Source of the DNA: Candidatus Omnitrophota bacterium
GTDB lineage: Bacteria; Omnitrophota; Gorgyraeia; Duberdicusellales; 4484-171
Direction of reading: 5' to 3'
DNA length: 64,000 bases
Assembly: GCA_016935525.1 (NCBI GenBank)
Contig: JAFGQU010000002.1
Coordinates: 98,560 to 162,559, forward strand
The notes under the pieces were generated by a model. That model had not been told where the DNA came from. It did no database searches and saw nothing but the letters and a program-made list of their open reading frames with translations. How positions within the stretch are numbered: the stretch's first letter is position 1; each line of letters begins with the position of its first letter. The translations under genes and the position numbers were made by a program. Below are positions 2,372 to 47,332 of the stretch, piece after piece.

Positions 2372-2383
2372 TATTTTACTTAT

Positions 2384-3394: not shown

Positions 3395-3464
3395 AGAATA
3401 GCCATCTTTAAAAAACCGCGCGGCAATACCATGGATTTATTCCGCAAGGACCCTGTTTTTTGCA

Positions 3465-4694: not shown

Positions 4695-4750
4695 TATCTT
4701 TTCTTCACACTAAAACGCGCCGACGCGATTCGATACCCCACGGAACTATC

Positions 4751-17227: not shown

Positions 17228-17293
17228 CTGGCAAGGTTACGTTGAGCCGATCTTTCTTGAAAAAAATCTATCATTTTTTGCCCGAAGGCACCG

Positions 17294-18718: not shown

Positions 18719-18759
18719 CGCCTTTATTATACCTTAATAACCTTACAATGAATCGATAT

Positions 18760-20280: not shown

Positions 20281-20300
20281 CGTTATGTTCCGAAAGTGAA

Positions 20301-20435
20301 TCTCCTCGGACTAAAAGTCCGAGGCTTCTTCACGTCCCGCCAGACTTCGTTCGGCGGGACATCCGCCTCAGGCGGATAATTTCTCTCATTCATCCCCGAT
20401 CTGAAGCCCGGGGACTTCTGCGTAGAAATTAAAAA
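20301..20435. repeat. ~135 nt four-hairpin intergenic repeat, copy 1 (REP-like or structured RNA element)
   Basis: Near-identical to 22993..23127. Hairpins CCTCGGAC-taaaa-GTCCGAGG, GTCCCGCC-(11 nt)-GGCGGGAC, CCGCCT-c-AGGCGG and CCCCG..CGGGG, with the shared tail TTCTGCGTAGAAATTAAAAA. Confidence 0.7.
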
Positions 20436-20542
20436 GCAGGTCGGGATTACCCGTTCGACAACAACACACGGTGTTTATTATAAATCCATATCCTCACCTG
20501 TCAAATACCTCAAACAATCGGATTGGTTCGTGCTTGCATGCC

Positions 20543-22850: not shown

Positions 22851-22992
22851 TGTATTTTCTTGATAAGGAATACAAAATAACTCGTCATTATTCTATAAAA
22901 AACCTCATATACCGATTTATTTTAGCAAAAGGAAGTGCCAAAAACAATCTTTGCTCTCTGGCCAAAAGCAGTTACTCCTCACTTTAGTGAAT

Positions 22993-23127
22993 CGCCTCGG
23001 ACTAAAAGTCCGAGGCTTCTTCACGTCCCGCCGAACGAAGTTTGGCGGGACATCCGCCTGAGGCGGATAATTTCTCGCATTCATCCCCGGTCTAAAGCCC
23101 GGGGATTTCTGCGTAGAAATTAAAAAT
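22993..23127. repeat. ~135 nt four-hairpin intergenic repeat, copy 2
   Basis: Same order of the four hairpins and the same tail as copy 1. The loops of hairpins 2 and 3 are reverse-complemented relative to copy 1. Confidence 0.7.
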
Positions 23128-25500: not shown

Positions 25501-25504
25501 GTGT

Positions 25505-28789: not shown

Positions 28790-28953
28790 AATTATATTCT
28801 TCGAAAAAACCTGCCGGAATTCCGGCACCAAGAAGACTGTTTATTATACCATTGTGCCCTTTTTTTTCAAGATAACCGCAATGAGCCTATTCAAAATCAT
28901 TGCGCCTTAAGATATTTTACCCTATAATAATTTTCCCTACTACCGATAGCACA

Positions 28954-29799
28954 ATGGACAATCTGTTACATGCGTTAAGCATTGACCTTGAAGAATGGTA
29001 CCATCCTGCGCTCGTAAAAGGCTCTATAAAAACCCCGAAAGAAAGTCAAATATGGGATTCTAGTAATGAGTTACTCACACTGCTCAACGACTATGATATA
29101 AAAGCCACTTTCTTTATTGTAGGGGAAATCGCTCAAGAACATCCTCAATTAATACACACAATTTTTCATGCCGGCCATGAGGTCGCTTTTCACGGATTTT
29201 CTCATACTCCTCTTTACAAACTCACCCCAGTTTCTTTTCAAGACGAACTGGTAAAAGCAAAAAACCTGTTTGGATCCATCTTGGGAAGTGCGGCAATAAA
29301 AGGGTTCCGGGCCCCTAATTTTTCGCTTACTCAAAAAACCGCGTGGGCTGTCGATATTTTAAAATCCTGCGGGTTTACATATGATTCAAGCGTGTTTCCG
29401 GTCACATTTCCTTATTTCTACGAGTGCGCCGGCGCGCCGCTTTCGGCATATGGAATAAACGCCTCCGATATTACTATTGCCGATGCGACCAGCACATTAA
29501 AAGAATTCCCGGTAACCGTATCTCAATTCGGAAGAATACGCCTCCCTATTACCGGCGGGACTTATTTACGAATATATCCGTTTTGGCTGCAGAAAAGGAT
29601 ATTGACGCACATCAGCCGACACCGTCCTTTACTGCTCTACATTCACCCCTGGGAATGTTTTGAACACACCCCCAGGATCAGGATTAATCCGATCGGACGG
29701 TTTTTATCTTATCATAATATACATTCGACCGTTGCCCGGTTAAAAATTCTTTTTCGGGCTTTCCGTTTCACGCGTATCGATACTGTGTTAGGAGTGTAA
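28954..29799 (+). CDS. polysaccharide deacetylase (CE4-like, PEP-CTERM-locus type)
   Basis: 'SIDLEEWYHP' and 'TFFIVGEIAQEHPQLIHTIFHAGHEVAFHGFSH'. Start set at MDNLLHA; the track ORF starts at 28900. Confidence 0.55.
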   Translation: MDNLLHALSIDLEEWYHPALVKGSIKTPKESQIWDSSNELLTLLNDYDIKATFFIVGEIAQEHPQLIHTIFHAGHEVAFHGFSHTPLYKLTPVSFQDELVKAKNLFGSILGSAAIKGFRAPNFSLTQKTAWAVDILKSCGFTYDSSVFPVTFPYFYECAGAPLSAYGINASDITIADATSTLKEFPVTVSQFGRIRLPITGGTYLRIYPFWLQKRILTHISRHRPLLLYIHPWECFEHTPRIRINPIGRFLSYHNIHSTVARLKILFRAFRFTRIDTVLGV

Positions 29800-29801
29800 A
29801 A

Positions 29802-31526
29802 ATGAATATCCTTGGGATCAATGGGTTAGGGATTGCTCCTGCTGCCTGCCTGGTTCAAGACGGAAGATTAACCGCAATGGCTGAAGAAGAACGGTTTACT
29901 CGAATAAAAGGCTCTTTCGGAATAATGCCCGCACACGCAGCCGGGTTTTGTCTTGATTTCGCACACATACGCACTCTAGACGAAATTGATTATATTGCCT
30001 TTCCTTGGGATACGCATAAATATCTTTTTTTTATGCCATATTTTTTCCTACGCACCTACCTTTTATATGCAAAAAAAACCGGCAGCGGATCGTTGATCCC
30101 TGCAATAAAAGAATTATATAAGTATCAAAGGGGCAACGTAATACGGTGCATTGAGGTAATGCTGCGGACTGCAGGGTTTTCAGGGAAAATCCCTCCAGTT
30201 ATTTTTATTCCTCATCATCTTGCCCATGCTGCCTGTGCATTTTACACTTCGGGTTTTGAAGAAGCCGACATTCTTATCATAGACGGAAGTGGCGAAGAAA
30301 AATGCACCTCGGTATTTTTGGGAAAAAACTTCGCATTACACCAGGCACATTCTTTCTCTATCCCCCATTCTCTGGGATGGTTTTACCAGAGCCTTACTGA
30401 ATTTTTAGGGTTCACTCCGAATCAAGGAGAAGGGAAACTGATGGGGCTGGCCGGATACGGGAATTATGATCCCTCTATCCATTCGTTACTGAAAAAGATG
30501 ATTTCTTTTGATGCTGACGGAAACTACCGTTACGACGCTACCTATAGTTTTTTAGGCAGCCACTCTCAAGGCACTGTCTATAGCGACCGGATGGTTTCCC
30601 TGCTGGGTCCTGCGCGTATTGAGCCGGATACCTTTACTCAGAAATATAAAAATATCGCGTTTTCAGCTCAATATATATTGGAAGAGATTACCGGTCGACT
30701 TGTACGTATTCTTTCTTCTCGAGGTGGATTTTCCGGAAAATTATGTCTGGCCGGAGGGGTAACATTAAACTGTAAAATGAACGGGGAAATAGCGACACAA
30801 GAATATATTGATGACTTATTTGTCCCTCCCGTACCGCATGATGCCGGAGCTGCTCTCGGTGCGGCATTATATGCGGCGAAAGAAAAAGGAGATCGGCCGG
30901 ACACCGTTTTTGAACATCCCTATTATGGCCCTGAATTTTCCGATCATCAGATTTATTCGGCATTAAAAGAGCATTCTTTAACATTTCAGCACGAACCGGA
31001 TATTGCCGGAAAAGTCGCGCATCTGCTTTTTCAGGAAAAAATTGTAGCCTGGTTCCAGGGGAGAATGGAAATCGGGCCGCGCGCGCTGGGCGCCCGTTCA
31101 ATAGTAGCGAATCCGGCAAAGGTTTCGACAAGAGACCTGGTGAACGCGATCAAAAAACGTGAACCTTGGCGGCCGCTGGCGCCTTCTCTTCTGGATCGGG
31201 AAAAAGATGCGTATCTCGTAACCAGCCGACAATCCCCGTTTATGGCAATTGCGTGTGAGATGTCCGCGCAGGGTAAAATCAAAACTCCCGCAGTAGTCCA
31301 TGTCGACGGGACAACTCGTCCTCACCTTGTCAGTGAAAAGAACAATCCCCGTTATTGGAAGCTGATCTCGGAATTTGAAAAACTGTCCGGGATACCGCTT
31401 ATTCTCAACACATCATTCAATATCGGGAAAGAACCTATCGTCTGCACTCCCACCGATGCGATCCGGACATTTATCCGTTCCGACTTACACTATCTTGCGA
31501 TAGGCGATTATCTTGTTCGGAAATAA
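29802..31526 (+). CDS. carbamoyltransferase, NodU/CmcH/TobZ family
   Basis: 'MNILGINGLGIAPAACLVQDGRLTAMAEEERFTRIKG' is the conserved N-terminus of the family. Length about 570 aa. Confidence 0.65.
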   Translation: MNILGINGLGIAPAACLVQDGRLTAMAEEERFTRIKGSFGIMPAHAAGFCLDFAHIRTLDEIDYIAFPWDTHKYLFFMPYFFLRTYLLYAKKTGSGSLIPAIKELYKYQRGNVIRCIEVMLRTAGFSGKIPPVIFIPHHLAHAACAFYTSGFEEADILIIDGSGEEKCTSVFLGKNFALHQAHSFSIPHSLGWFYQSLTEFLGFTPNQGEGKLMGLAGYGNYDPSIHSLLKKMISFDADGNYRYDATYSFLGSHSQGTVYSDRMVSLLGPARIEPDTFTQKYKNIAFSAQYILEEITGRLVRILSSRGGFSGKLCLAGGVTLNCKMNGEIATQEYIDDLFVPPVPHDAGAALGAALYAAKEKGDRPDTVFEHPYYGPEFSDHQIYSALKEHSLTFQHEPDIAGKVAHLLFQEKIVAWFQGRMEIGPRALGARSIVANPAKVSTRDLVNAIKKREPWRPLAPSLLDREKDAYLVTSRQSPFMAIACEMSAQGKIKTPAVVHVDGTTRPHLVSEKNNPRYWKLISEFEKLSGIPLILNTSFNIGKEPIVCTPTDAIRTFIRSDLHYLAIGDYLVRK

Positions 31527-31598: not shown

Positions 31599-32411
31599 TT
31601 ATTTGTTCGGCAGATTTATATTGAGCTCGTGATCTTTCATGCCAGGAAACTCAAAAGAATTGTCGGGAAGAAAATGGCGGATTCGATACATACTTTTTCC
31701 GAATACCCGTTTCAAGCGGATTTTCAAAGAGACCAACAGTGAACACATACTATTCAGAAACAAGTCGAAAAAGATCGGGCCGCGGCGGCGATAACGCGCC
31801 ACTTTCACATCATAAGAATTATCTATGCGATAACCGAGTAATCCGGCGATAACGCCGATCTCGTTCGCACAGGAATAACGGAATCCGATATAATAATCTA
31901 TCAGATCTTCAAGAAAACTCATGCTCAATATCTTAAATCCACATTCAACATCCTGAAAGCGATAGCCTCCTATCAATGACGCAAAAAGAGAAAGGATTTT
32001 ATTGCCTATCACGCGATGATAAGGATAACATGTAAAGTCGCGGCGGCCGATAAGGACGTCCAGATTATTTCTTTTAAAAAACTCGTGCATCGGGGGGATA
32101 TCCTGAGGGTCATGCTGACCATCGGCATCGATTGTGACTACTGCATCAGAGAGAGAAAATACCTGCCTCTCTACTTGCCGCAGAAAGAACTTAAAACCAG
32201 AAAGCAATGCGGTCGACATCCCTTTATTTACGGGAAGAAACAAGTAAAAAACGTTCGGTTTATCTGCCCGCCAGCGAGTGATCAAAGAATGAGAAGAATC
32301 ACTGGAACCGTCATTCACCACGATTAAAGCATCGACATATTGGATTAATCGTTCAAGCACGTGAATGATATCTATTTCCTCATTATATACCGGGACAAGA
32401 GCGACGATCAT
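31599..32411 (-). CDS. GT2 polyprenol-phosphate sugar synthase (DPM1/ArnC/GtrB-like)
   Basis: 'IVVNDGSSDSS' and 'TIDADGQHDP' are GT2 DXD-type motifs. Size and organisation match the ArnC/DPM1 family. Confidence 0.6.
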   Translation of the reverse strand: MIVALVPVYNEEIDIIHVLERLIQYVDALIVVNDGSSDSSHSLITRWRADKPNVFYLFLPVNKGMSTALLSGFKFFLRQVERQVFSLSDAVVTIDADGQHDPQDIPPMHEFFKRNNLDVLIGRRDFTCYPYHRVIGNKILSLFASLIGGYRFQDVECGFKILSMSFLEDLIDYYIGFRYSCANEIGVIAGLLGYRIDNSYDVKVARYRRRGPIFFDLFLNSMCSLLVSLKIRLKRVFGKSMYRIRHFLPDNSFEFPGMKDHELNINLPNK

Positions 32412-32435: not shown

Positions 32436-33875
32436 TTAATGATAGAGATAGTTAAACAGAGCCCAGCCCATTTCAATCTTTCTCATAAAATTTCTTAACA
32501 ATCCTGGCTGCCCCATGTGTTTAAATATATTCCTCACAATAAAATCGGGACGCATATAAAAACGCCGGTACGCGTATTTGAACATCTCTTCGATTTCTTT
32601 TTCCGATATATGCTTATCCCAGAGATGGGGCGAGAAATTCGGACGCGGACAAAGAGCGAATTCTTTCCAAAAATCTTTTTCATAAATTTTTTCCTTTAAT
32701 CCAAGTTCATATAATTCGGTCCCGGGAAAAGGGGTAGTAATCGAAAAATGCGCATAATCCGGGTCCAATCTGATCGCAAGATCTATAGTGCTCAAAATAT
32801 CTGCTCTCTGTTCTTCGGGAGAGCCGATCATAAAATACGCGACGGTTTCCAGACCGGCACGTTTTACTTTTTCAAAAGCGCGCTCAACCTGAGTAAGACT
32901 AAACCTTTTCTTCAGCACCTCAAGCGTCCTTTCCGTTCCCGCTTCAACACCAAGCTGGATCCTCTTGCACCCTGCCTGTTTTAACCTTTTTAATACATCA
33001 AAACTCTTGACGGTATCGACGCGGGTACGGATCCCCCACCGTAGGTTCAATCCCTGAGCAATGATCCTATTACAAATGTCCTCCGCCCGGGATTGATCTA
33101 ATAAAAATACTTCATCGACAAAAAATATCTCTTTTATTCCCAACCGGGAACACTGTTTCATCTCTTCTACGATATGGTCGCTCCTGCGAAACCGCACCTT
33201 TCTATTAGAAGGGGGATTATAGCAAAACATGCACTGATAAGGACAGCCCAGGCTTGAGATCATTGTCGTCGAGGGAGAGTCTTCGGAAAGGACATTATAA
33301 TATTCGGATATGGGAAGTAGCGTCCGGTCGGGAAAAGGTAATGAGTCTAAATCATACCCCTCATCGGGAGGCTGGGTCTTGATTATTGTGCCGTTTTCCT
33401 TATATAACAATCCCCGTACCGGATACAGATCGGCTTTTTTCTCCAAAAGAGAAACCAACTGGGTAAAAGGGATCTCGCCGTGTCCCAGGATAATCGAATC
33501 AATCGCCGGACTGGAAAGTGTTTCTTCAGGATAAATGTTCACATGAGGGCCGCCTAAACTTATATGCGCAGAAGGAGCATACCGCTTTATCGACTCGGCA
33601 ATACAATACACATCAAAAAGCGTAAATGATGTGGTGTACATCCCCACCACATCCGGCTTGAATTGATGGATAACACTTTCTATTTTTAAGGATCGAGCAC
33701 TCCTCAACTGTAAATCGATTACTTTCACCTGATGCTGAGTAGAATGCTTAAGATAAGTCGCTACATAAAGCAGCCCCAGAGGAGGAGAAGCCATCGCTGC
33801 CTCATCAATAATGGTAGGAAAATTTGATTTCGCTATATACGTGTTCGCTGGGTTAATCAACAAAACGTTCATCAC
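32436..33875 (-). CDS. B12-binding radical SAM protein
   Basis: 'DVVGMYTTSFTLFDV' B12 domain. 'SLGCPYQCMFCYN' CxxxCxxC. Confidence 0.7.
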   Translation of the reverse strand: MMNVLLINPANTYIAKSNFPTIIDEAAMASPPLGLLYVATYLKHSTQHQVKVIDLQLRSARSLKIESVIHQFKPDVVGMYTTSFTLFDVYCIAESIKRYAPSAHISLGGPHVNIYPEETLSSPAIDSIILGHGEIPFTQLVSLLEKKADLYPVRGLLYKENGTIIKTQPPDEGYDLDSLPFPDRTLLPISEYYNVLSEDSPSTTMISSLGCPYQCMFCYNPPSNRKVRFRRSDHIVEEMKQCSRLGIKEIFFVDEVFLLDQSRAEDICNRIIAQGLNLRWGIRTRVDTVKSFDVLKRLKQAGCKRIQLGVEAGTERTLEVLKKRFSLTQVERAFEKVKRAGLETVAYFMIGSPEEQRADILSTIDLAIRLDPDYAHFSITTPFPGTELYELGLKEKIYEKDFWKEFALCPRPNFSPHLWDKHISEKEIEEMFKYAYRRFYMRPDFIVRNIFKHMGQPGLLRNFMRKIEMGWALFNYLYH

Positions 33876-33894: not shown

Positions 33895-35460
33895 CTAGGT
33901 ATCGTACCAGTCCGGTTTCCTAAGACGCATAAATCCGGTAAGCCCTTCGAAATCTTTCTTTCTCAACATCACATCTTTTAATTCTAAAAAGAGCATCCGT
34001 ATCGTATTTGTAAAAAACCACCAGTAAAGTCCCCGTTTATGCCGGTAGGGCGAGAAAAGTCCTCGGATGAGCCAGTGCGGACGGTACAGCACATAACGTT
34101 TATTCAACTCCATATTCAATTTTGCCAGCTCTTTTCGGGAAAAACCTTGTTCGGAACGCAGTATCGGGGTAGACCAGTCATAATGGGTAAAATCGGGGTC
34201 ATCGATAAGACCGTCTTCTTTTGCCTGTTGATAGAGGTAAGTCCCAGGAACCGGAGCAACGGGATGGAAGGCGGGATAATCGATATCGATTTCAACCGCA
34301 TACTTGACCAGATCGAACATGGAACATTCGGTTTCGAAAGGGAGACAGGTGACAAAAGTCCCCTGACGGAACACCTGGGGATATTTTCTCTTAAAAAGAG
34401 TAAATACTTCTTTCACCATATCCCGGGTATATTCGGATTTATTCACCAGCCGTAGATGTTCGGTACAACCCCGTTCAATTCCGATCAGAGGGTGGACCAG
34501 CCCGGCCCGGACCATTTTCTTTAAAACGCCCATCCGCTCATCCCGCAAGGCGAAATCGGCCCGGATAAACGCCCACCATTTAAGGTCTTTATAATTCCGT
34601 TTTAAAAGCCCTTCGCAAAAAGCGTCAGTCCAACGCGGATCGACATTAAACGTAGGATCAGCCCAAATAATATATTTACGGTTATATTTTTTATAGACAA
34701 TGTCTATTTCTTCTAATGTCCGTTCAACACTTTTTGAACGATAATGCGGCATCACTTCCAGTTCGCCTTTTTCTATCTCAGTCTTTTCCTGTCTGCCCCA
34801 GAACGTCCATAACGAACAGAAAGTACATTTGTCGATACAGCCGCGGGAATGTTCCAATGTCGCACTTACTGGCCAGAGATACCCGAAAGGGGAGTATTTC
34901 CCCATAGGCATCAGATCATACGCGGGAAGAGGCAGATCATCGAGATTTTTGACTAACGGGCGTAGAGCCGTAGTGACAGGCTTTCCGTTCCGTTTATACG
35001 CGATCCCCGGGACCGCGTCCAGGCTTTTCCCTTCGCGTAACGTCTGGATGAGATCGACGACGGTACGTTCTCCTTCAAACCGCACGATAACATCGATAGG
35101 GAATTTAGTTAATGAATAGTCGACCATCCAGGAAAAGAAATGCCCGCCGGCGAACGTGACGGTATCGGGATTGATCTCTTTTACCAGCTTGTATAATCGA
35201 ACCGCTTCATGATGATATAACGCCTCTTCTCCCGCACCGACGATGTCCGGACGTTCGCGGCGGACGATATCGGCAAGGGCCTTCCAGCCGATCTTAAGCG
35301 GCGGACAGTCGATTATTTTCAACTCGATATCCGGAAAACTTTCCCGGATAGCGGCAGCAATACAGGGAAGCCCTAAAGGAAGAAGGAAATTGTCGGACTC
35401 GTTTATAAACGGCCAGAGATATCGCGGCGGCCTTATTAAAAGGATCTTCTTTGTCTTCAT
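33895..35460 (-). CDS. B12-binding radical SAM protein
   Basis: 'DIVGAGEEALYHHEAV' B12-like N-terminal domain. 'SRGCIDKCTFCS' CxxxCxxC. Confidence 0.65.
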   Translation of the reverse strand: MKTKKILLIRPPRYLWPFINESDNFLLPLGLPCIAAAIRESFPDIELKIIDCPPLKIGWKALADIVRRERPDIVGAGEEALYHHEAVRLYKLVKEINPDTVTFAGGHFFSWMVDYSLTKFPIDVIVRFEGERTVVDLIQTLREGKSLDAVPGIAYKRNGKPVTTALRPLVKNLDDLPLPAYDLMPMGKYSPFGYLWPVSATLEHSRGCIDKCTFCSLWTFWGRQEKTEIEKGELEVMPHYRSKSVERTLEEIDIVYKKYNRKYIIWADPTFNVDPRWTDAFCEGLLKRNYKDLKWWAFIRADFALRDERMGVLKKMVRAGLVHPLIGIERGCTEHLRLVNKSEYTRDMVKEVFTLFKRKYPQVFRQGTFVTCLPFETECSMFDLVKYAVEIDIDYPAFHPVAPVPGTYLYQQAKEDGLIDDPDFTHYDWSTPILRSEQGFSRKELAKLNMELNKRYVLYRPHWLIRGLFSPYRHKRGLYWWFFTNTIRMLFLELKDVMLRKKDFEGLTGFMRLRKPDWYDT

Positions 35461-36644
35461 AGGAATATCTTACGCAATTTTAAATAAAACCGGTAAAGTA
35501 TTTTCAATACGGTAAACTGCAATTTGACAAAAACGAACCGACGAAAATCCTTGTCCACAAAATATCTGCCTTCTTCCGGTAACAACACCAGACTCACTTT
35601 AATCCTCGGAGCAATACCGATGGGGATCTTATTCTCCATACACACTTCATACATCCGTCGGAATACGGGGATCAATTCGTCAGGTTGCGGTGGATCAAGA
35701 TGGGCAAAATCAGTACCTAGGCAAGGACGGAACACGCATACCGTAGATACGACGCCTCTCTTTGCGAAATATTCAATAGCCGCGATCGTACTTGAAACCG
35801 GTTCTAATCCGGCAATGATTTCGCCGGCAACCCTCCCTTTACCGAACATCTTTGAACAATATTCGATCGTATCCAGATATGTTTCCTGCGTGAGATACCG
35901 ATGTTTACCCGGACAGATCTCCTTAAATTTTTCTTTATCGAATACCTCTACGCAGAACGAAAGATGGTCCACTCCGAGCTTTTTAAGATTTTTATAATAT
36001 TCCCGTTCGGCGACCGGCGGGCATTGTACTCCCACCATAAGCTTTCTTTTTTTGACGGCTTTAATATACGGGCCCAATATCTTCAACTCGTCACCCCAAA
36101 GAAATCCCGTATTAAAATGGACAAAAGTGATATGTTCTTCCTGTTGAGCCGCAGTCACGGTTTCCATCACGTCTTCGACCGTTTTTTCAGTTTCCTCGGT
36201 ACTGCCGACATTGAGGCCTATTGAACAGAACCGGCAGTTCATCCGGGGATCCATTTGCCAGAACTCACATATGTTCGTGGGGTATATCCCCAAATAGGTA
36301 CCTTGCATCATTCCTATGCGCGACATTGGCTTACCGGCTTTTGTCTTCTGAGCATAAAACCGGGGACGGGGAGGGATTTTTACCGTACAAAGCTTTACGT
36401 TTTCTTTCTCGATAAAATAAGTATCCTTTTTTTTGTAAAGCACATACGGACTCTTAGCAACAAAATGTTCCTCTATCGGCACGTTTGCATAGAGGCCGTC
36501 CGGAAGTATTATTTCCAACCCGCTGCCTAATCCACCCCGCGTCCGGGAAACCGAACGGGCATCATCGTTTAATCTACAGCTGGCATCGATTCTTATCCCT
36601 CTGCAGAAAAGGTCTAGTTTGAGGAACCCCGGATTGAGCTTCAT
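35457..36644 (-). CDS. putative radical SAM-like protein with non-canonical cysteine spacing
   Basis: 'NICEFWQMDPRMNCRFCS' (Cx12CxxC) and a glycine-rich 'GEIIAGLE' segment. No B12 domain. 4 nt overlaps with both neighbours. Confidence 0.35.
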   Translation of the reverse strand: MKLNPGFLKLDLFCRGIRIDASCRLNDDARSVSRTRGGLGSGLEIILPDGLYANVPIEEHFVAKSPYVLYKKKDTYFIEKENVKLCTVKIPPRPRFYAQKTKAGKPMSRIGMMQGTYLGIYPTNICEFWQMDPRMNCRFCSIGLNVGSTEETEKTVEDVMETVTAAQQEEHITFVHFNTGFLWGDELKILGPYIKAVKKRKLMVGVQCPPVAEREYYKNLKKLGVDHLSFCVEVFDKEKFKEICPGKHRYLTQETYLDTIEYCSKMFGKGRVAGEIIAGLEPVSSTIAAIEYFAKRGVVSTVCVFRPCLGTDFAHLDPPQPDELIPVFRRMYEVCMENKIPIGIAPRIKVSLVLLPEEGRYFVDKDFRRFVFVKLQFTVLKILYRFYLKLRKIFL

Positions 36645-37507
36645 AAAGAGACCAAATAGGCGATGCTAAGGCCGATATGGCCGGTAATCAGTATACAATA
36701 CATATGCCACCAAGAAATATGGTTTTCGTTACCGGCTACACGACAGGGATATTTCCTGATAAGATATACGACATACCTTCCCCACACACTTAATAAAAGA
36801 AGCGGGAATACGCTCACGGGCAATATGTTCCATAGTATCCCTAACGGTATCATGAAAAAAGGGATATAAAAAAATGGGGCGATGAGCTTAATCGTTTTCT
36901 CCCGTCCATAAAGGACCGGGAGTGTTTTGACCCCTTCGCACTCATCACCGGCAATATCATTAAAGTCTTTTGTCGTGACCGCCCCCCAAAGGTAGAGTGT
37001 AAACATGAATCCGATAAACCATGGCTCCCACGTAAAAATCGTCTTTTTTATACTCCATCCGGCAAGGATTACACCCGCCCCGCGAGGAAATGCGATCGCG
37101 AGATTGTTTAAAAAAGGCTTCTTTTTACTCCGCAACGGAGGAGCTGAATAGAAAAAGGTAAATAGCGATCCGCATATAATAAGCAAAAAGAATCTTAACC
37201 CCACGCTCCCGGCAAGGGAAAAACTTACGATATAAAGGGTTATGGCAAATATCAACGCCTGAGACCGTAAGATCCTTTTGGAAGGGATAGGCCTTTGCGG
37301 CTTATTAATTGCATCCGCTTCGTAGTCAAAATACTGGTTAATGACATTAGAGGCGGCATTAAGAAACATCCCGGCACATGCCCCTATAATTACCTTCACA
37401 TCAGGGAAATTTCTCGATGCGATTATTCCTCCGGCGATTACCCCGCTCACCGGAGCCAGAAGGGTAAAAGGGCGGACAAGTTCTACATAAATTTTATATA
37501 TGCCCAC
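36641..37507 (-). CDS. UbiA-family prenyltransferase, DGGGPS/chlorophyll-synthase-like
   Basis: 'NQYFDYEADAINKPQRPIPS' matches the NDxxDxxxD motif, with the RPIPS extension typical of DGGGP synthase and chlorophyll synthase. Second DxxxD in 'FNDIAGDE'. Eight to nine TM helices. Confidence 0.75.
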   Translation of the reverse strand: MGIYKIYVELVRPFTLLAPVSGVIAGGIIASRNFPDVKVIIGACAGMFLNAASNVINQYFDYEADAINKPQRPIPSKRILRSQALIFAITLYIVSFSLAGSVGLRFFLLIICGSLFTFFYSAPPLRSKKKPFLNNLAIAFPRGAGVILAGWSIKKTIFTWEPWFIGFMFTLYLWGAVTTKDFNDIAGDECEGVKTLPVLYGREKTIKLIAPFFYIPFFMIPLGILWNILPVSVFPLLLLSVWGRYVVYLIRKYPCRVAGNENHISWWHMYCILITGHIGLSIAYLVSL

Positions 37508-37794
37508 TTTTTTAGATGTACTTTATCTCAACGTATACGCTAAGCCTTAAAAATATATTTAAAATCATTGTACTGGGTTCGATTTGAGTGTCAAGCCAGC
37601 TATTGCCTCAGGATCGACCGGCAGATCATCTGTCCGCTGCTCTTCGGTGTGGTTTCTATCTCCCTGCCGGACATAGACAATCTCTTGCATACAATATCCC
37701 AAATATGATACTATGATGACAATGTTTTATTACACGCATCGTCATTACCGGAGGAACCATATTTCTACTTAATCCTTATTCCTATCGGAGAAAT

Positions 37795-38670
37795 ATGTCG
37801 ATCTCAATCGTAATGCCTACCTATAATTGCCGGGACCTCATCGCCGACACGTTACATCCCCTCCTGGCCGCACCCGGTTATTTCCAGGAATTGATCATTA
37901 TTGATAACGGATCAAACGACGGGACCAAAGAATTTATCCAAAACCGATACCCCGATATCACCCTTATCGCAAACTCCCACAATCGCGGAGCAAGCGCCGC
38001 TCGTAATCAGGGAATCGACCGGGCCCAGGAAGAATATATTTTATGTATGGATTGTGACGTGATGTTAAGTAAAGGATTTTTTAAAAACCTCAAGAGGATC
38101 CTGAAAAAACTGCCTGAAAGTGTCGCCGCCATCTCGCCAAAAACCATCCAGTCCGGCACCGACAAAATATTCTCTTGCGGACTAGCCGTCTCCTCTCTAT
38201 TAAGAACCCATGATATCGGCAAAAATAAGGATACCGCCTCATTGGGGAAAAGAAAACCTATCGACGGCCCCAACACCTGCTGTGCGATCTACCGTAAAAA
38301 GTATCTCGATTTGGTAAAAGAGCATTCTTATTTTGACGAAGACTTCTTTTTTATCGGAGAAGATGCCGACCTGGCCTTACGGTTTAAGGAGAAAGGATTC
38401 CTTTGCCTTATGTTTCCGCAATTAACCTGCAGCCACCGGGGAAAAAGTTCCGGGTTTTCAGACCAACGCCGGCGTTATTTCTCATTCCGTAACCGTCTTT
38501 ACATGATCCTCAAACATTATCGGGGAAAAAATATGGCTTCCTTTTTTATAAGAAGTTTTTTCTATGATGTTATCCGTACCGTTCATTTTTTCTTAACCAA
38601 CAAGTACGCTTTTAACATATTTTCCGACCTCTATGAAAAATGGCAAAAAGAAAAAAATAATCATATTTAA
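37795..38670 (+). CDS. glycosyltransferase family 2
   Basis: 'SIVMPTYNC', 'IIIDNGSNDGT' and 'CMDCD' are GT2 motifs. Confidence 0.65.
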   Translation: MSISIVMPTYNCRDLIADTLHPLLAAPGYFQELIIIDNGSNDGTKEFIQNRYPDITLIANSHNRGASAARNQGIDRAQEEYILCMDCDVMLSKGFFKNLKRILKKLPESVAAISPKTIQSGTDKIFSCGLAVSSLLRTHDIGKNKDTASLGKRKPIDGPNTCCAIYRKKYLDLVKEHSYFDEDFFFIGEDADLALRFKEKGFLCLMFPQLTCSHRGKSSGFSDQRRRYFSFRNRLYMILKHYRGKNMASFFIRSFFYDVIRTVHFFLTNKYAFNIFSDLYEKWQKEKNNHI

Positions 38671-39757
38671 TCCGGCCGCGAACCTTTATGGGACCGAACG
38701 CGGGCTTATGAATTTTATCAAAGCTATTGGCGATAGGTTCGAGGTTACCGTAATCCTTCCCGAAACCGGGCCGCTCGTCGAACAATTGAGAAGGTTACCC
38801 TTTTCTTGCCGGATAAAAATATTTCCTCTTGCGATACTCGTCAATTCGTATTCTCCCCTCTATTATCTGTTCTTTTTGATGTATTCTCTGCTCAATGTAG
38901 GGTACTTCACTCTCTATATTGCCGTAAAAAAAATAGATATCGTCTGTACGAACAGCTTATTGATCCCGACCCCTGCGCTTATCGCCTGGATTTTGAAACG
39001 CACACACATCTGGTATATCTGGGAGATGAGCCCGCGGGTGGCGTTAAACCGGTTATGTTCCCGGTATATCCAGACTTTCTCTTCTGCGATCATCTGCGCT
39101 TCACACACGATTAAAACATATCTTGCTCTTCCGGATTCGACTAAAGTGGTGTATAATCCGATCGATCCGGCGCAATATCGAATCTATGCCCCGGCCCGGG
39201 CCCGAAGAGATCTGGCGTTACCTCAAGCAGCTATCGTCCTTACGATAATCGCGCGCATCCACCCTTCAAAAGGTCAGTTGGAGTTTCTTCGTTCTTACCA
39301 TACAATACTGAAAAAATATCCTGAGGTAATTCTCCTTATCGTAGGCGATATCGGCGTGAAAACATTACGGAATAGTATGTACAAAAAAAACCTGTTACAT
39401 TTCATCCGCACCCACTGTCCGAATAACATCCGCTATGTAGGTGCCCGTAACGATATCGATAAGCTACTCTCGGCCAGTGACATATGTATCTTCCCTTTTT
39501 GCCGGATCGAACCGTTCGGGATAGCGCTCGCCGAGGCCCTCAGCTTTCAGAAACGGTGTCTTTTCCCCGGCTCCGGGGGATTTAAAGAAATCGGCACGCT
39601 GTTCTCGCAAGGTGAAGAGTTACGCCAGGACACACTCGAGGAAGCCATACTCCAATGCCGGACATCAAAAAAAGAAACCGTTAAAGAATTATTCGTTCCT
39701 TTTGCTCTCTCGGTCGATTATTATACACAAGCTATTGAAAACATTCTTGCACGATGA
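38633..39757 (+). CDS. glycosyltransferase family 4
   Basis: 'CRIEPFGIALAEALSF' is the GT4 E-x7-E region. N-terminal 'KKIIIFNPAANLYGTERG'. Confidence 0.6.
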   Translation: MKNGKKKKIIIFNPAANLYGTERGLMNFIKAIGDRFEVTVILPETGPLVEQLRRLPFSCRIKIFPLAILVNSYSPLYYLFFLMYSLLNVGYFTLYIAVKKIDIVCTNSLLIPTPALIAWILKRTHIWYIWEMSPRVALNRLCSRYIQTFSSAIICASHTIKTYLALPDSTKVVYNPIDPAQYRIYAPARARRDLALPQAAIVLTIIARIHPSKGQLEFLRSYHTILKKYPEVILLIVGDIGVKTLRNSMYKKNLLHFIRTHCPNNIRYVGARNDIDKLLSASDICIFPFCRIEPFGIALAEALSFQKRCLFPGSGGFKEIGTLFSQGEELRQDTLEEAILQCRTSKKETVKELFVPFALSVDYYTQAIENILAR

Positions 39758-40890
39758 AAAATCCGGAAAAGAAAATCCTCTTTATCATTACCCATTTAAA
39801 GTTAGGCGGCGCCCAGAAACACCTGTTTTCTCTTATAGACCATTGCCTGGCATCCGGATATACCGTACACCTTATCACCGGAAGAGACGGCTTTTTCTTG
39901 CAAAAGCTGATCAAATTTCCTCAATTAAAGGTTATATGCATCCCGGCTCTGGTCAGACACATCAATTTATTTAATGATATCGCAAGTTTTTTCACGATCT
40001 ATTTTTATATAAAAAAACATACATTCTCGCTCGTCCACACTCATTCTCCCAAAGGCTCTTTTCTGGGACGATGGGCGGCATATGCATCCGGCGTAAAAAA
40101 TATCGTCTATACGGTCCATGGCTGGCCGTTTCACTATCCGATGAATATTCTTACGTATGGGTTTTATGCATTTCTGGAAAGGATCAGCGCGCGGATCACT
40201 CGAAAGATCATCATCGTTTCCTCTGCCGATTTGAATACCGCGTTACAAAAGAAAATCGCGCCCCCTGAGAAGATGGAACTTATCCACTGCGGCGTACACG
40301 TAGAATACTGCGAAAAAATATACCGTCACCGGTCCCCTCCGTTAAAAAATAACCCCATGATCATTACGGTTTCTGCGCTGAAACCACAAAAAGGACTGAT
40401 GCATTTTCTCTCCATGGCTGCCTATGTCACCGAAACATTCAAAAATGCTCAGTTCTACATTATCGGCGAAGGCCCGTTAAGAAAACAATTAGAAAAAAGA
40501 ATAAAAAATCTTGGCCTCAAAGAAAACGTGCATTTGATTGATTGGCATGAAGATCTTTCTTTTTTCTATACGCACGCCTCGCTGTTTGTACTTTCTTCAC
40601 TCTGGGAAGGATTGCCGATGGCGCTTATCGAAGCGGTGCTTTCGGGAATACCGGTTTTAGTCAGCGACACGCAAGGCATACACGATATCGTTTCGCAAAA
40701 CGAACAAGGCCGGATCGTGAGACTTGACTCGCTTGATTCTTTAGGAAAAGTATGCCGAGAGTTATTGCAGAATATCGAGTATTGGAATATAATAGTCTCA
40801 CACGCCAGGAAAAATATTCTTCGCGATTACTGGTCCGAACAAAGGGCCTTAAGAGAAATAGATTCGTTATATTCTCGATTGTGTATATGA
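39754..40890 (+). CDS. glycosyltransferase family 4
   Basis: 'WEGLPMALIEAVLSGIPVLVSD' E-x7-E motif. ATGA overlaps on both sides. Confidence 0.65.
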   Translation: MKNPEKKILFIITHLKLGGAQKHLFSLIDHCLASGYTVHLITGRDGFFLQKLIKFPQLKVICIPALVRHINLFNDIASFFTIYFYIKKHTFSLVHTHSPKGSFLGRWAAYASGVKNIVYTVHGWPFHYPMNILTYGFYAFLERISARITRKIIIVSSADLNTALQKKIAPPEKMELIHCGVHVEYCEKIYRHRSPPLKNNPMIITVSALKPQKGLMHFLSMAAYVTETFKNAQFYIIGEGPLRKQLEKRIKNLGLKENVHLIDWHEDLSFFYTHASLFVLSSLWEGLPMALIEAVLSGIPVLVSDTQGIHDIVSQNEQGRIVRLDSLDSLGKVCRELLQNIEYWNIIVSHARKNILRDYWSEQRALREIDSLYSRLCI

Positions 40891-41852
40891 CATATGCATT
40901 AAATTTTTTCCTGACGCTCACCATTTCTTTTGTTTTCTTTTCATTCCTGCTCAAAATCTCATCCCGGATCAAGCAGTTTCAGGACCAGGGAGTCTCGGTC
41001 CTGGGCGGGACCGGCATACTGTTTTCCGGTACTCTGTTTCTCGCCTATATTCATTTTTACCGTTCTCCGTTACCGCCGGAGCTGCTCAACATCTGTCTTT
41101 TTGCCTCTATTATTTTCTTCGTAGGATTACTGGACGATATCCGCGAGCTTTCGCTTCTTTTAAAACTGATAATCCAGATTGTCGTATTCGCCCTGTTTCT
41201 TTTGACTGCCAAAGGGGTACACATATATTTTTTGCCGGGATACCTTAACTATCTTATTTCCTTTTTGTGGCTGGTGGGTATCACCAATGCCTTTAATTTA
41301 CTCGATATCAATGACGGCCTCTGCAGCGGAGTGAGCCTGCTGACCGGACTTTCCTTTGCGATCGCTGCATTCCTTTGCAACGATATCATCATCACTCATC
41401 TTTTTATCTGTATTTCGGCGACGTTATTCGCGTTTTACGTCCTTAATGTCCCCCCAGCCAGGATGTATTTAGGAAATTCAGGAAGTCACTTCCTGGGATT
41501 CCTTTTTGCGTCCTTAAGTATGCACATAGATTATACGGCCATCGCACGGACCTATACCGTTTTGATTCCTCTCCTTTTTCTGGCCTTCCCCATTCTCGAC
41601 ACTTTCTTCCTCATCTTCGCCCGGGCTAAAAGGGGGATCCTTCCGTTACATAAAAGTAATGACCATATTTTTATGCGGCTGACAAAAAAGGGTATCCGTT
41701 ATCACCGCGCTCTGCTTATTATTTATATGGTGACGATAAACTGGTGCGCAACCGGTATCTTTATGCTGTTAGGAAAAGAAATTGCCGCCATATGCTGTCT
41801 GATTATTGCCGGTATCTTAACCTTACTTACGATAAAAAAAGCCCGCCGATAG
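40887..41852 (+). CDS. polyprenyl-phosphate sugar-1-phosphate transferase (WecA/MraY family)
   Basis: 'VGLLDDIRELS' and 'TNAFNLLDINDGLCSG' are MraY/WecA signature motifs. Start placed at MTYALN, which overlaps the upstream stop as ATGA; the track ORF starts at 40752. Confidence 0.65.
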   Translation: MTYALNFFLTLTISFVFFSFLLKISSRIKQFQDQGVSVLGGTGILFSGTLFLAYIHFYRSPLPPELLNICLFASIIFFVGLLDDIRELSLLLKLIIQIVVFALFLLTAKGVHIYFLPGYLNYLISFLWLVGITNAFNLLDINDGLCSGVSLLTGLSFAIAAFLCNDIIITHLFICISATLFAFYVLNVPPARMYLGNSGSHFLGFLFASLSMHIDYTAIARTYTVLIPLLFLAFPILDTFFLIFARAKRGILPLHKSNDHIFMRLTKKGIRYHRALLIIYMVTINWCATGIFMLLGKEIAAICCLIIAGILTLLTIKKARR

Positions 41853-47321: not shown

Positions 47322-47332
47322 CCAACGCCTTT

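Follow-up and report, generated by a model that had tools for sequence, protein, structure and literature searches.

In an uncultured Omnitrophota bacterium, the genes for a UbiA-superfamily prenyltransferase, a variant radical SAM enzyme and a class B (B12-binding) radical SAM enzyme overlap in series on the minus strand. This arrangement raises the questions of (i) which prenyltransferase family the UbiA protein belongs to; (ii) whether its pairing with the radical SAM gene is conserved; and (iii) whether, as an earlier sequence-only reading had proposed, the genes form a module for ether-linked or membrane-spanning lipids.

Explanations of the isoprenoid-lipid class are the most reasonable for the UbiA/radical SAM pair, which probably makes a modified isoprenoid membrane lipid, and to this extent the proposal stands; its archaeal-type ether or tetraether part is not supported, as nothing specific to such lipids was found. 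A membrane-spanning or ether lipid is a possible product to which nothing here points specifically, and the genes around the pair, which encode GT2, GT-C, deacetylase and carbamoyltransferase enzymes, suggest that the chemistry is that of envelope glycoconjugates. The best overall explanation, with a probability of about 0.4, is that the pair is the core, at the promoter-proximal end, of a large cell-envelope lipid/glycoconjugate cluster of Omnitrophota and acts through the four steps set out below. The new point is the pairing itself, which recurs in anammox bacteria and Asgard archaea.

Organization of the locus

The window, i.e., the whole 64,000-nt stretch of DNA that was analyzed, contains the features listed in Table 1. 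The ORF positions previously given were all exact, the 4-nt overlap of UbiA with the radical SAM gene and the overlap of the latter with the first B12-radical SAM gene both proved to be 4-nt ATGA junctions, and Pfam finds B12-binding and Radical_SAM domains in each of the two genes that had been called B12-radical SAM. The pair heads an envelope cluster of ~35 kb that includes GT2, GT-C, deacetylase and carbamoyltransferase genes, five B12-radical SAM genes and four U32 genes; the downstream run probably belongs to it, and to the same pathway, judging only by co-orientation. The probable operon start is a promoter-like site ahead of UbiA, which is a consensus match only, of a kind not enriched across the region.

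Table 1. Features of the UbiA/radical SAM locus (window coordinates)
Feature	Position	Strand	Size and matches
UbiA-superfamily prenyltransferase	36641..37507	-	288 aa; Pfam UbiA E 4e-44
Variant radical SAM enzyme	35457..36644	-	395 aa; Pfam Radical_SAM E 3.5e-10
Class B (B12-binding) radical SAM enzyme	33895..35460	-	521 aa; Pfam B12-binding + Radical_SAM
Class B radical SAM enzyme	32436..33875	-	479 aa; Pfam B12-binding + Radical_SAM
Short GT2 glycosyltransferase, polyprenyl-phosphate sugar synthase type	31599..32411	-	270 aa; weak PpgS, ArnC, AglJ matches
NodU/CmcH-type carbamoyltransferase	29802..31526	+	574 aa; conserved in cluster
Polysaccharide deacetylase with DUF3473 domain	28900..29799	+	299 aa; conserved in cluster
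Class II glutamine amidotransferase domain protein	27971-28831	-	
Conserved partner of amidotransferase gene	26880-27974	-	364 aa; faint PP-loop-like matches only
Downstream run, probably of the envelope cluster	14270..26920	-	
PMT_2 GT-C genes (three)	25505-26920, 20543-22105, 14270-15808	-	
U32-family genes (two)	23120-25590	-	
PEMT/ICMT methyltransferase	22098-22850	-	
Three further B12-radical SAM genes	15809-20280	-	
Divergent GT2, two GT4 glycosyltransferases and Glycos_transf_4 (WecA/MraY-type) polyprenyl-phosphate sugar-phosphate transferase	37795..41852	+	
Promoter-like site	37567..37594	-	TTGACA-16-TACAAT; 11/12 consensus matches; 60 nt upstream of UbiA start codon

The UbiA protein is related to chlorophyll synthase and DGGGPS

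The UbiA protein contains NQYFDYEADAINKPQRPIPS and has the motifs N57-Q-x2-D61-x3-D65, Y120-SAPPLR-x-K and K180-DFxDxxGD. That its signature lies nearer to DGGGPS and chlorophyll synthase than to UbiA or MenA, as had been suggested, is upheld by the closest solved structures, MjDGGGPS (6m31, E 1.6e-22) and chlorophyll synthase (9sau, E 3e-17), and by the NCBIfam scores (ChlG 127 bits, DGGGPS 109, MenA 62, UbiA 36). However, the protein reached less than 60% of every curated NCBIfam family cut-off (ChlG 127 of 313 bits, BchG 110 of 212). Because it scored 109 and 104 bits with the DGGGPS models, against cut-offs of 296 and 353, we ruled it out as a DGGGPS orthologue; the eight UbiA-family members tested all missed these cut-offs widely, the archaeal ones scoring equally low.

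In a neighbour-joining tree (284 columns; two reference sequences partial; DPPR synthase and HPT references not included), the UbiA family grouped with ChlG/BchG at 100% bootstrap and with DGGGPS as sister (69%), although monophyly of the family relative to ChlG had only 33% support. MenA, UbiA, EboC and heme O synthase all fell outside. The protein belongs to the DGGGPS/chlorophyll-synthase super-clade and clusters with ChlG/BchG to the exclusion of DGGGPS. MenA is distant, and no similarity to DPPR synthase was detected, this family being absent among the best 25 NCBIfam matches (where ChlG has E 5e-37) and from the annotations of the plasmid matches. By sequence, the protein is placed in an uncharacterised sister subfamily of (bacterio)chlorophyll synthase, far from MenA, UbiA and heme O synthase.

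The nearest clade, ChlG/BchG, resembles the UbiA family in motif 2, YSAPP(L/F)(R/K)xK, and in the xDAINxPxRPIPSG setting of motif 1; a probable further likeness is the use of C20 prenyl diphosphates. In contrast, family members score only 110–150 bits (cut-offs 212–313), have an invariant N-Q rather than N-D at motif 1, and occur in non-phototrophs with a radical SAM partner instead of nearby bch/chl genes. BchG-like UbiA genes are known from other non-phototrophs, on an MCG/Bathyarchaeota fosmid (Meng et al. 2009) and as Heimdallarchaeia 'BCS' homologues (PMC11193907); these UbiA homologues fall between the branches of DGGGPS and chlorophyll synthase and come from lineages of dark, anoxic settings, Asgard archaea among them, and the reports describe no linked radical SAM gene.

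It is quite unlikely that the UbiA protein esterifies a tetrapyrrole or other carboxylate cofactor in a ChlG-like manner, with BchE-like class B enzymes modifying the macrocycle. The tree and motif 2 would fit this, ChlG/BchG are the best annotated plasmid matches (34% identity, E 1e-19), BchE is the top NCBIfam match of several B12-radical SAM genes, and the BchG-like gene of an uncultivated MCG archaeon reportedly has BChl a synthase activity (Meng et al. 2009, cited in PMC3930316 and PMC8262859). However, the ChlG and BchG cut-offs were missed, the BchE matches reflect generic class B similarity well under the cut-off, the window has no bch, chl or other tetrapyrrole genes in its glycan and envelope context, and the host lineages are dark-anoxic.

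Archaeal-type ether lipids as a possible product

The residues on which MjDGGGPS activity depends (PMC9385802), N, D and D in motif 1 and the D residues in motif 3, are conserved in the UbiA protein, but DGGGPS lacks the SAPP insertion in motif 2. A search for its partner enzymes, proposed earlier for GGGP synthase and G1P dehydrogenase, was negative: no GGGPS/PcrB, G1P dehydrogenase (G1PDH), CarS or Tes/Mss-type gene was seen among the scanned window ORFs of at least 150 aa, or in those flanking regions of relatives to which Pfam annotation or clustering was applied.

We consider it unlikely that the locus makes archaeal-type isoprenoid glycerol ethers, with UbiA as DGGGPS and the radical SAM enzymes joining or tailoring the products into membrane-spanning, cyclised or methylated lipids. 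Such lipid reactions are known for the radical SAM enzymes Tes, Mss, Grs, Hbs and Hgm, and Hbs/Mss homologues have been reported from Omnitrophota (bioRxiv 10.1101/2023.10.20.563219; PMC11868695). Furthermore, the best match among solved structures is DGGGPS, which is also the next clade in the tree, the synthases beside UbiA in relatives resemble C15–C20 enzymes, and in one locus (L004) the pair is surrounded by two SPASM radical SAM genes and four B12-radical SAM genes. Against this stand the DGGGPS cut-offs missed by 8/8 family members, the grouping with ChlG and the ChlG-type motif 2, the failure to find GGGPS, G1PDH and CarS in the window or the annotated flanks of relatives, and the separate canonical DGGGPS that, we infer, archaea with the pair must own.

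The variant radical SAM enzyme

The cluster motif of the radical SAM enzyme is C126-x10-C137-x2-C140 (ICEFWQMDPRMNCRFC), i.e., Cx10CxxC and not Cx12CxxC as previously read; across homologues the spacer has 8 to 10 residues. The protein scored 223 bits with NF045502 (cut-off 125). Its nearest named relative is the MSMEG_0568 family (TIGR04043, Nit1C nitrilase clusters), with 26–30% identity over ~80% of the length, including the N-terminal domain; however, it scored only 120 bits of the required 304, and the gene context of that family is nitrilase, GNAT and AIR synthase-like.

An AlphaFold2 model (mean pLDDT 88.9) has a LipA/BioB-like TIM barrel, the LipS2 HMM matches with E 2e-8, and seven cysteines are invariant, including the extra Cys14, Cys231, Cys244 and Cys303. 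This fold, together with the extra cysteines, suggests a second Fe-S cluster, such as LipA, LipS2 and BioB have for modifying unactivated carbon, so that sulfur insertion or C-C/C-X bond formation would be possible. The enzyme differs from these three in its low identity (12–16%), its cysteine pattern with the non-canonical Cx10CxxC motif, an extra N-terminal domain of 110 residues and an amphipathic tail. This tail, a cationic C-terminal helix with 6–10 Lys/Arg in all 20 homologues examined, may dock the enzyme on the membrane.

Conservation of the UbiA/radical SAM pair

UbiA is indeed coupled to radical SAM genes, as proposed, and the coupling is conserved. In all eight non-redundant loci with a UbiA protein at least 47% identical (seven from a genome scan, L090 from a metagenome scan), the variant radical SAM gene comes immediately after UbiA, as it does in about ten more distant loci, and the pairing is therefore not due to chance. 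The pair is found in Omnitrophota, 'Planctomycetia', Elusimicrobia, Bdellovibrio-labelled and 'Clostridia' MAGs, in Brocadiales, Hermodarchaeota and Helarchaeota, and in MAGs labelled, doubtfully, CPR and DPANN. The radical SAM gene is the better conserved (52–65% identity, compared to 42–56% for UbiA). Starting from the radical SAM gene, however, the linkage is weak: only 4 of 80 metagenomic radical SAM homologues have this UbiA within 10 kb, and the radical SAM family may therefore have a broader or different role.

In many relatives a PF01663 phosphodiesterase gene adjoins UbiA, reminiscent of the ebo operon, which combines the UbiA-like prenyltransferase EboC with the nucleotide pyrophosphatase/phosphodiesterase EboF. 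However, the UbiA protein scored only 65 bits with EboC (cut-off 250), and the window lacks a phosphodiesterase gene as well as EboA, B, D and E. Brocadiales have the order UbiA, phosphodiesterase, radical SAM, and in a branch without the radical SAM gene UbiA is accompanied by SDR epimerase, phosphodiesterase, CTP_transf_1-like (dolichol-kinase-like), Bac_transf and PMT_2 genes. Both arrangements could be expected if UbiA joined a polyprenyl phosphate to a sugar diphosphate such as PRPP, the phosphodiesterase removed the phosphate, the radical SAM enzyme (elsewhere the SDR epimerase) epimerised or modified the sugar and GT-C enzymes passed it to the envelope, in a pathway resembling that of decaprenyl-phospho-arabinose: the Brocadiales order mirrors DPPR synthase, phosphatase and epimerase, and the window encodes other polytopic membrane proteins besides three PMT_2 GT-C enzymes. 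Such a lipid-linked sugar donor is nevertheless improbable, given no detectable affinity to DPPR synthase in the comparisons above, the trans-type, short-chain rather than cis-polyprenyl synthases beside UbiA, and the DPM1-like GT2 genes of the cluster, which can already provide donors for GT-C enzymes.

Prenyl donor and proposed pathway

Although none lies beside UbiA in the window, a trans-prenyl diphosphate synthase gene adjoins the pair in at least nine loci. These synthases are of the FPPS/GGPPS type (C15–C20-like), and in the copies from Omnitrophota the residue at position -5 before a DDxxxxD motif is Phe, a mark of short-chain products. In the branch without the radical SAM gene, DUF92 (VTE6-like prenyl-phosphate kinase) and CTP_transf_1-like genes adjoin UbiA.

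Since relatives carry such a synthase or kinase beside UbiA, the donor in step 1 of the preferred envelope-lipid pathway would be a short-chain all-trans prenyl diphosphate, FPP or GGPP. In step 2, going by family chemistry and the intact motifs, the Asp-rich motifs of UbiA would ionise the diphosphate, and the prenyl group would be transferred to an oxygen nucleophile of a membrane-associated acceptor, probably neither GGGP nor chlorophyllide, giving an ester (as with ChlG/BchG) or an ether (as with DGGGPS). In step 3, the translationally coupled radical SAM enzyme, docked through its C-terminal helix, would cleave SAM on the Cx10CxxC cluster and modify an unactivated carbon of the prenylated lipid. 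In step 4, class B radical SAM enzymes may methylate or rearrange this lipid, and GT2, deacetylase, carbamoyltransferase, amidotransferase and GT-C enzymes may build and transfer a modified amino-sugar head group. The most likely product is a radical-tailored C15–C20 prenyl ester or ether glycolipid.

The envelope cluster and its class B radical SAM genes

L009, L010, L011, L036 and L090 share the order GT-C, GT2, (synthase), UbiA, radical SAM, B12-radical SAM, GT2, carbamoyltransferase, deacetylase, and all of them also keep the position of the 270-aa GT2 gene. The amidotransferase gene and its 364-aa partner, possibly a split AsnB-like amidotransferase, are kept in L010 and L011. The 521-aa B12-radical SAM gene is the best conserved of the Omnitrophota-type cluster; in L090 and L091 it keeps its place with 74–75% identity, and L009, L010, L011 and L036 have a member of its family there. 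This enzyme is BchE-like (176 bits, cut-off 481) and the 479-aa enzyme HpnJ/BchE-like (178 and 177 bits, under the cut-offs).

Two B12-radical SAM genes in the window have HpnJ as their top match, and the cluster resembles the hopanoid side-chain pathway (radical SAM HpnH, glycosyltransferase HpnI, deacetylase HpnK, class B radical SAM HpnJ, HpnP and HpnR), in which a radical SAM enzyme tailors an isoprenoid lipid before glycosylation, de-N-acetylation and B12-radical SAM rearrangement or methylation. However, all Hpn cut-offs were missed, the window ORFs covered by the Pfam scan include no squalene-hopene cyclase, and the lipid would here come from a UbiA transferase rather than a cyclase.

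The strand run with four U32 genes, a PEMT/ICMT methyltransferase gene and five class B radical SAM genes might instead serve an oxygen-independent prenylated redox or aromatic (quinone-like) compound, whose ring UbiA would prenylate and UbiU/UbiV-type U32 proteins hydroxylate, with the radical SAM, B12-radical SAM and PEMT/ICMT enzymes building or methylating it. Several UbiA-family members score ~100 bits with the HPT model, and the radical SAM enzyme is weakly similar to ThiH, CofH and MqnE, which act on aromatic substrates. We regard this as very unlikely: no references are more distant than MenA and UbiA, more than 11 kb separates the U32 genes from the pair (L090 is the only relative with one within 10 kb), the neighbours that are conserved modify sugars, and the pair also occurs in the doubtfully labelled CPR and DPANN MAGs. 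CPR and DPANN lineages mostly lack respiratory chains.

Finally, the class B genes, and the SPASM genes of relatives, could tailor peptides (RiPPs) or polysaccharides and owe their closeness to the pair to cluster mosaicism. The number of B12-radical SAM genes ranges from 0 to 5 between loci, the archaeal and Brocadiales pairs having none, and the SPASM enzymes of L004 are nearest to the peptide maturases SCIFF, PapB and QhpD. Mosaicism is nonetheless highly improbable in view of the ATGA overlap between the variant and 521-aa radical SAM genes, the kept position and high identity of the latter, and the search for a precursor peptide ORF, which found no convincing one. Class B radical SAM and SPASM enzymes occur in RiPP clusters as well, which counts against the envelope-lipid explanation.

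Translational coupling of the UbiA and radical SAM genes

The gene for the window UbiA overlaps the following radical SAM gene by an ATGA, and a second ATGA overlap joins the radical SAM gene to that of the 521-aa B12-radical SAM enzyme. The UbiA gene is preceded, at a distance of 60 nt, by a strong sigma-70-like site, TTGACA-16-TACAAT. Both overlaps had been described from the sequence alone, in an account (hereafter, the sequence-only reading) that proposed an ether or membrane-spanning lipid module; Pfam confirmed the domains of the genes involved, and the peptide quoted there, NQYFDYEADAINKPQRPIPS, was found in the window UbiA. Together with the conserved neighbors reported below, these overlaps show that translation of the UbiA gene is coupled to that of the radical SAM gene and that the coupling has been kept in evolution.

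Genes of the UbiA-led run and tailoring genes further downstream, with positions in the window
Feature	Position	Strand	Remarks
UbiA	37507..36641	minus	288 aa, GTG start; UbiA domain by Pfam
Radical SAM	36644..35457	minus	395 aa; domain by Pfam
B12-radical SAM	35460..33895	minus	521 aa; PF02310 + PF04055
B12-radical SAM	33875..32436	minus	479 aa; PF02310 + PF04055
GT2 glycosyltransferase	32411..31599	minus	270 aa; domain by Pfam
Peptidase_U32-family genes (four)	3465-4694, 8387-9409, 23120-24478, 24298-25590	minus	
PEMT/ICMT methyltransferase	22098-22850	minus	
B12-radical SAM genes (three)	18760-20280, 17294-18718, 15809-17227	minus	PF02310 + PF04055

Subfamily assignment of the UbiA protein

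Membership of PF01040 was assigned to polytopic membrane proteins that exceed the Pfam gathering score and carry the motifs NxxxDxxxD and DxxDxxxD. The window UbiA scores 151 bits (cut-off 34), has at least six hydrophobic segments in a crude scan, and contains both Asp-rich motifs (N57..D61..D65 and D181..D184..D188), which are conserved throughout the uncharacterised subfamily to which it belongs (the family). The catalytic Asp residues required in MjDGGGPS (PMC9385802) are retained.

Among solved structures, the best match was M. jannaschii DGGGPS (6m31, E 1.6e-22), followed by chlorophyll a synthase (9sau, E 3e-17), while AfUbiA matched with an E value of merely 7e-7. On annotated plasmids, chlG/bchG genes matched best (no more than 34% identity, E 1e-19), ahead of haloarchaeal DGGGPS (E ~1e-10), with MenA and EboC behind these. 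The highest NCBIfam score was obtained with PRK12884 'prenyltransferase' (150 bits, cut-off 269), and the window UbiA reached no NCBIfam cut-off, be it that of the ChlG/BchG models (PRK07566, 127 of 313 bits; TIGR01476, 110 of 212; TIGR02056, 82 of 436) or of the DGGGPS equivalogs (PRK12882, 109 of 296; PRK12883, 104 of 353). Scores were lower for EboC (65 bits), HPT (63), MenA (62), heme O synthase (54) and UbiA (36). The same pattern was seen in seven other family members, from Helarchaeota, Hermodarchaeota, Brocadiales, Latescibacterota and elsewhere: their ChlG/BchG scores resemble those of the window UbiA, and their DGGGPS scores are only 83-114 bits even in the archaeal members, which are therefore not canonical archaeal DGGGPS.

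In a bootstrapped neighbor-joining tree (33 sequences, 284 columns, annotated references), a simple method with few references, the family and ChlG/BchG grouped together with 100% bootstrap support, although monophyly of the family relative to ChlG received only 33%. DGGGPS was the next clade out (69%), its references forming a clade of their own (73-92%), and the EboC, MenA, UbiA and heme O synthase references fell outside the clade of the family and ChlG/BchG. Given this placement and the missed cut-offs, we rejected a position of the family inside DGGGPS. Membership of the MenA, UbiA, heme O synthase, EboC or DPPR synthase groups was likewise rejected on the low scores and the outlying references; for DPPR synthase, which was not part of the tree, the assignment refers to the NCBIfam comparison, where it was absent from the 25 best matches. 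Scores, tree and motifs thus place the protein neither with DPPR synthase or MenA, a clustering that would have spoken against the sequence-only reading, nor within DGGGPS, and the likeness to DGGGPS and chlorophyll synthase over UbiA and MenA that was proposed there is borne out by the structure matches, the order of NCBIfam scores and the tree. These results also bear on two alternative products: a DPA-like lipid-linked sugar donor, for which glycosyltransferase genes are at hand in the cluster and a DPPR synthase-like score is not, seems improbable to us, and a prenylated quinone-like compound very improbable.

Two sequence features further define the family. Motif 2 is of the ChlG type, YSAPP(L/F)RxK, common to the family and ChlG but missing from DGGGPS. 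In addition, the first Asp-rich motif opens with N-Q in 20 of 20 aligned family members (residues 57-58, window about 37334-37339), whereas N-D or N-E is found in the ChlG, DGGGPS, EboC, UbiA and MenA references, and N-C and N-N in two heme O synthases; N-Q is a signature of the subfamily. Taken together, the data identify the window UbiA as an intact member of the ChlG/DGGGPS super-clade of prenyltransferases. Esterification of a tetrapyrrole or cofactor, as the ChlG likeness might imply, is nevertheless decidedly improbable; there are no bch or chl genes in the window.

The variant radical SAM enzyme

Assignment to NF045502 'variant_rSAM', an NCBIfam model without assigned function, required a score above its curated cut-off, a SAM cluster motif with three cysteines and at least part of a TIM-barrel fold; the window protein scores 223 bits (cut-off 125) and is a member of the radical SAM superfamily. 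The MSMEG_0568 radical SAM protein of Nit1C nitrilase clusters is a distant relative (120 bits, cut-off 304; 26-30% identity on plasmids). The radical SAM family comprises 2952 clusters at E <=1e-5, with invariant cysteines at C14, C126, C137, C140, C231, C244 and C303, and C23 conserved in 90%. The Cx12CxxC spacing previously ascribed to this protein needs correction to C126-x10-C137-x2-C140, the first spacer being 8-10 residues long in 20 homologues.

In an AlphaFold2 model (mean pLDDT 88.9), a beta-rich domain of 110 residues at the N-terminus is followed by a TIM-barrel core and a long C-terminal helix. The enzyme has a LipA/BioB-class fold and extra conserved cysteines. A PDB sequence search returned no significant match, and aligning the radical SAM family profile with E. 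coli BioB and LipA by hhalign, for cysteine mapping, gave no meaningful alignment. Specific similarity to Tes/GDGT-MAS or Mss was not found either, in a comparison that included no Tes/Mss, GrsA/B or Hbs references. Candidate Rosetta-stone fusions were discarded, as the long ORFs proved to be spurious upstream extensions. The last 30 residues contain 6-10 Lys/Arg and 0-2 acidic residues in 20 of 20 homologues and hold the most amphipathic 18-residue stretch of the window protein, a composition suggesting in-plane membrane binding and, hence, possibly a lipid substrate.

Conservation of the gene pair

Scanning one genome per GTDB species yielded 277 loci with relatives of the window UbiA, the best 80 of which were analyzed by tblastn and ORF clustering. 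Where UbiA identity is 47% or more, the non-redundant loci (L004, L005, L007 to L012) have, without exception, the radical SAM gene immediately after the UbiA gene, the two overlapping or standing a few bases apart. It also adjoins the UbiA gene in 'Clostridia' MAGs (L015, L022), Elusimicrobia (L036), Planctomycetota (L039), a Bdellovibrio-labelled MAG (L067) and three Hermodarchaeota MAGs (L017, L021, L069). Searching from the radical SAM side, we found the order UbiA, 724-aa PF01663 phosphodiesterase, radical SAM in Brocadiales, and radical SAM, UbiA in Helarchaeota. The radical SAM protein is more conserved (52-65% identity) than the UbiA protein (42-56%). We found no published report of this pairing.

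Genes for prenyl supply were shown to be recurrent neighbors of the UbiA family: a PF00348 trans-prenyl diphosphate synthase is adjacent in at least nine loci. In Omnitrophota and Elusimicrobia these synthases have Phe at -5 before the DDxxxxD first Asp-rich motif, a short-chain FPP-type signature, and those of 'Clostridia' look GGPPS-like. Distant UbiA relatives (39-46% identity) have no radical SAM partner; they sit with DUF92, a CTP_transf_1-like gene, SDR epimerase, Bac_transf and PMT_2, and with the same ~690-aa phosphodiesterase. DUF92 is the family of the plant phytyl-phosphate kinase VTE6, and the ebo operon provides a precedent for pairing a UbiA gene with a PF01663 phosphodiesterase.

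Viewed from the radical SAM gene, the link is weak: only 4 of 80 metagenomic loci matching its profile have a gene of this UbiA family within 10 kb, a PF01663-type phosphodiesterase lies within 10 kb in 5 of the 80, and most radical SAM genes occur in variable contexts.

Some loci depart from the common arrangement. In Latescibacterota (L037 9974-11829 and ten further loci) it is a membrane FA_desaturase-family gene, not a radical SAM gene, that the UbiA gene overlaps. By analogy with AcsF and BchE, a known pair of aerobic and anaerobic enzymes, this desaturase might carry out an oxygen-dependent version of the radical SAM step. In Hermodarchaeota (L017 1820-6840; also L021 and L069) the pair lies between genes for MCH (methenyl-H4MPT cyclohydrolase) plus a GXGXG (FwdC-like) protein and FTR (formylmethanofuran:H4MPT formyltransferase). 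This context may be coincidence or hint at a cofactor link, a clue that we set aside because the three loci represent one lineage and no mch, fwdC-like or ftr genes surround the pair in Helarchaeota. L010, L012, L009 and L007 are near-syntenic with the Omnitrophota cluster but derive from MAGs labelled Paceibacterota, Roizmanbacteria, Planctomycetia or Planctomycetales, which suggests mis-binning or horizontal transfer of the cluster. In L004, a 26-aa ORF (MKKIILVRPPRYLWPS..., 4937-5017) has a start codon that overlaps the stop codon of the radical SAM gene as ATGA, and its sequence resembles the 521-aa B12-radical SAM enzyme at the N-terminus. The intact gene for that enzyme lies 1.9 kb beyond, behind a SPASM radical SAM gene; the ORF looks like the scar of an insertion into an ancestral radical SAM/B12 junction.

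Proposed function

Neither GGGPS/PcrB, G1P dehydrogenase, CDP-archaeol synthase (CarS) nor a prenyl diphosphate synthase was detected among the scanned window ORFs of at least 150 aa, and the first three were not seen in the Pfam-annotated or clustered flanks of relatives, compared without reference sequences. The coupling of the UbiA and radical SAM genes stands; the ether-lipid module of the sequence-only reading was not demonstrated. We consider an archaeal-type ether or tetraether lipid improbable, the DGGGPS-like structure match notwithstanding.

Bacterial 'DGGGPS-like' (PMC6431249) and archaeal 'BchG-like' UbiA homologues (PMC3930316, PMC8262859, PMC11193907) are known, their function being debated. 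Since the variant radical SAM family has no assigned function and no report of the pairing was found, we conclude that the window encodes a real, uncharacterised system of an isoprenoid transferase with radical SAM tailoring, the function of which we infer, rather than a demonstrated ether-lipid module. The explanation we favor, at a probability of about 40%, is that UbiA would O-prenylate a membrane acceptor, as an ester or ether, from FPP or GGPP; the radical SAM enzyme would then modify that lipid at an unactivated carbon, possibly with a putative second cluster; and in Omnitrophota, class B radical SAM and sugar-handling enzymes would build the product up into a glycolipid or a modification of the envelope, a logic resembling that of the Hpn hopanoid side-chain pathway.

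A bolder version, which we hold to be rather unlikely, is that the pair marks a so far undescribed pathway shared widely among anaerobes (Omnitrophota, anammox bacteria, Asgard archaea and DPANN-labelled MAGs), in which a C15-C20 isoprenoid is attached to a non-tetrapyrrole acceptor and undergoes LipA/BioB-like radical modification (e.g., sulfur insertion or cross-linking), yielding isoprenoid membrane lipids or lipid anchors of a new class. If true, this would explain the long-puzzling 'bacteriochlorophyll-synthase-like' genes of dark-living archaea. ChlG/DGGGPS-like UbiA genes of non-phototrophs have been over-interpreted in the literature as evidence of archaeal lipids in bacteria and of bacteriochlorophyll in archaea, and we advise against naming the present genes DGGGPS or BchG. 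The conserved radical SAM partner and the prenyl-supply genes offer a concrete handle on their real product, making the pair a tractable lead to a possibly new anaerobe lipid class and to the puzzle of the BchG-like genes. A radical-tailored isoprenoid (glyco)lipid of anaerobes, if that is the product, would be a possible new biomarker class and would bear on the debate about the bacterial/archaeal 'lipid divide'.

The surrounding envelope cluster

The pair heads an envelope cluster much larger than previously described. A PMT_2 GT-C gene, flanking DPM1/PpgS-like GT2 genes on either side, and genes for the 521-aa B12-radical SAM enzyme, a NodU-type carbamoyltransferase, a polysaccharide deacetylase, a GATase-domain protein and its 364-aa partner are co-conserved with it in L009, L010, L011, L036 and L090, the last from a metagenome scan; the 521-aa enzyme is 74-75% identical in L090 and L091. 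Upstream, and divergent, are a GT2 gene, two GT4 genes and a WecA/MraY-type transferase. In the minus-strand downstream run, three further genes are of the PMT_2 GT-C type, and several encode polytopic membrane proteins. A search of the window for the partners seen in relatives (Phosphodiest, DUF92, sulfatase) showed them to be absent, and no convincing RiPP precursor peptides were found.

Five window genes combine an N-terminal B12-binding domain with a radical SAM domain and belong to class B; their top matches are BchE and HpnJ (130-240 bits), and none reaches an equivalog cut-off (BchE, HpnJ, HpnR, ladderane B12). That the tailoring genes form a mosaic or are unrelated to the pair is, in our view, very improbable. 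Peptidase_U32 is the family of the oxygen-independent hydroxylases UbiU/UbiV/RlhA. The minus strand at 3465-26920 holds an unusual concentration of anaerobic 'oxygen-free' tailoring enzymes for one envelope cluster. Two SPASM radical SAM genes of L004 resemble peptide maturases; they could equally encode Hbs-type lipid enzymes, which have been reported in Omnitrophota (bioRxiv 10.1101/2023.10.20.563219).

The GATase_6 domain protein and the 364-aa protein, the latter only faintly similar to PP-loop proteins (argininosuccinate synthase/QueC), are encoded at 26880-28831. L010 and L011 have the two as a conserved pair, which may be an asparagine-synthetase-like amidotransferase split in two and serving to amidate sugars. 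Two more genes lie at the distal end of this strand run (269-7543), one for a protein with a GH44 domain (269-2371), the other for a 930-aa protein that combines Laminin_G_3 and GDSL lipase domains (4751-7543). From 42 to 64 kb the window contains housekeeping genes (e.g., pyrimidine synthesis, Fpg, Era). A 682-aa ORF at 45459-47507 (620 aa on a Logan contig), in which a chorismate-binding domain is fused to an aminotransferase class IV domain, is a PabB-PabC-like aminodeoxychorismate synthase/lyase and adjoins the pyrimidine biosynthesis genes.
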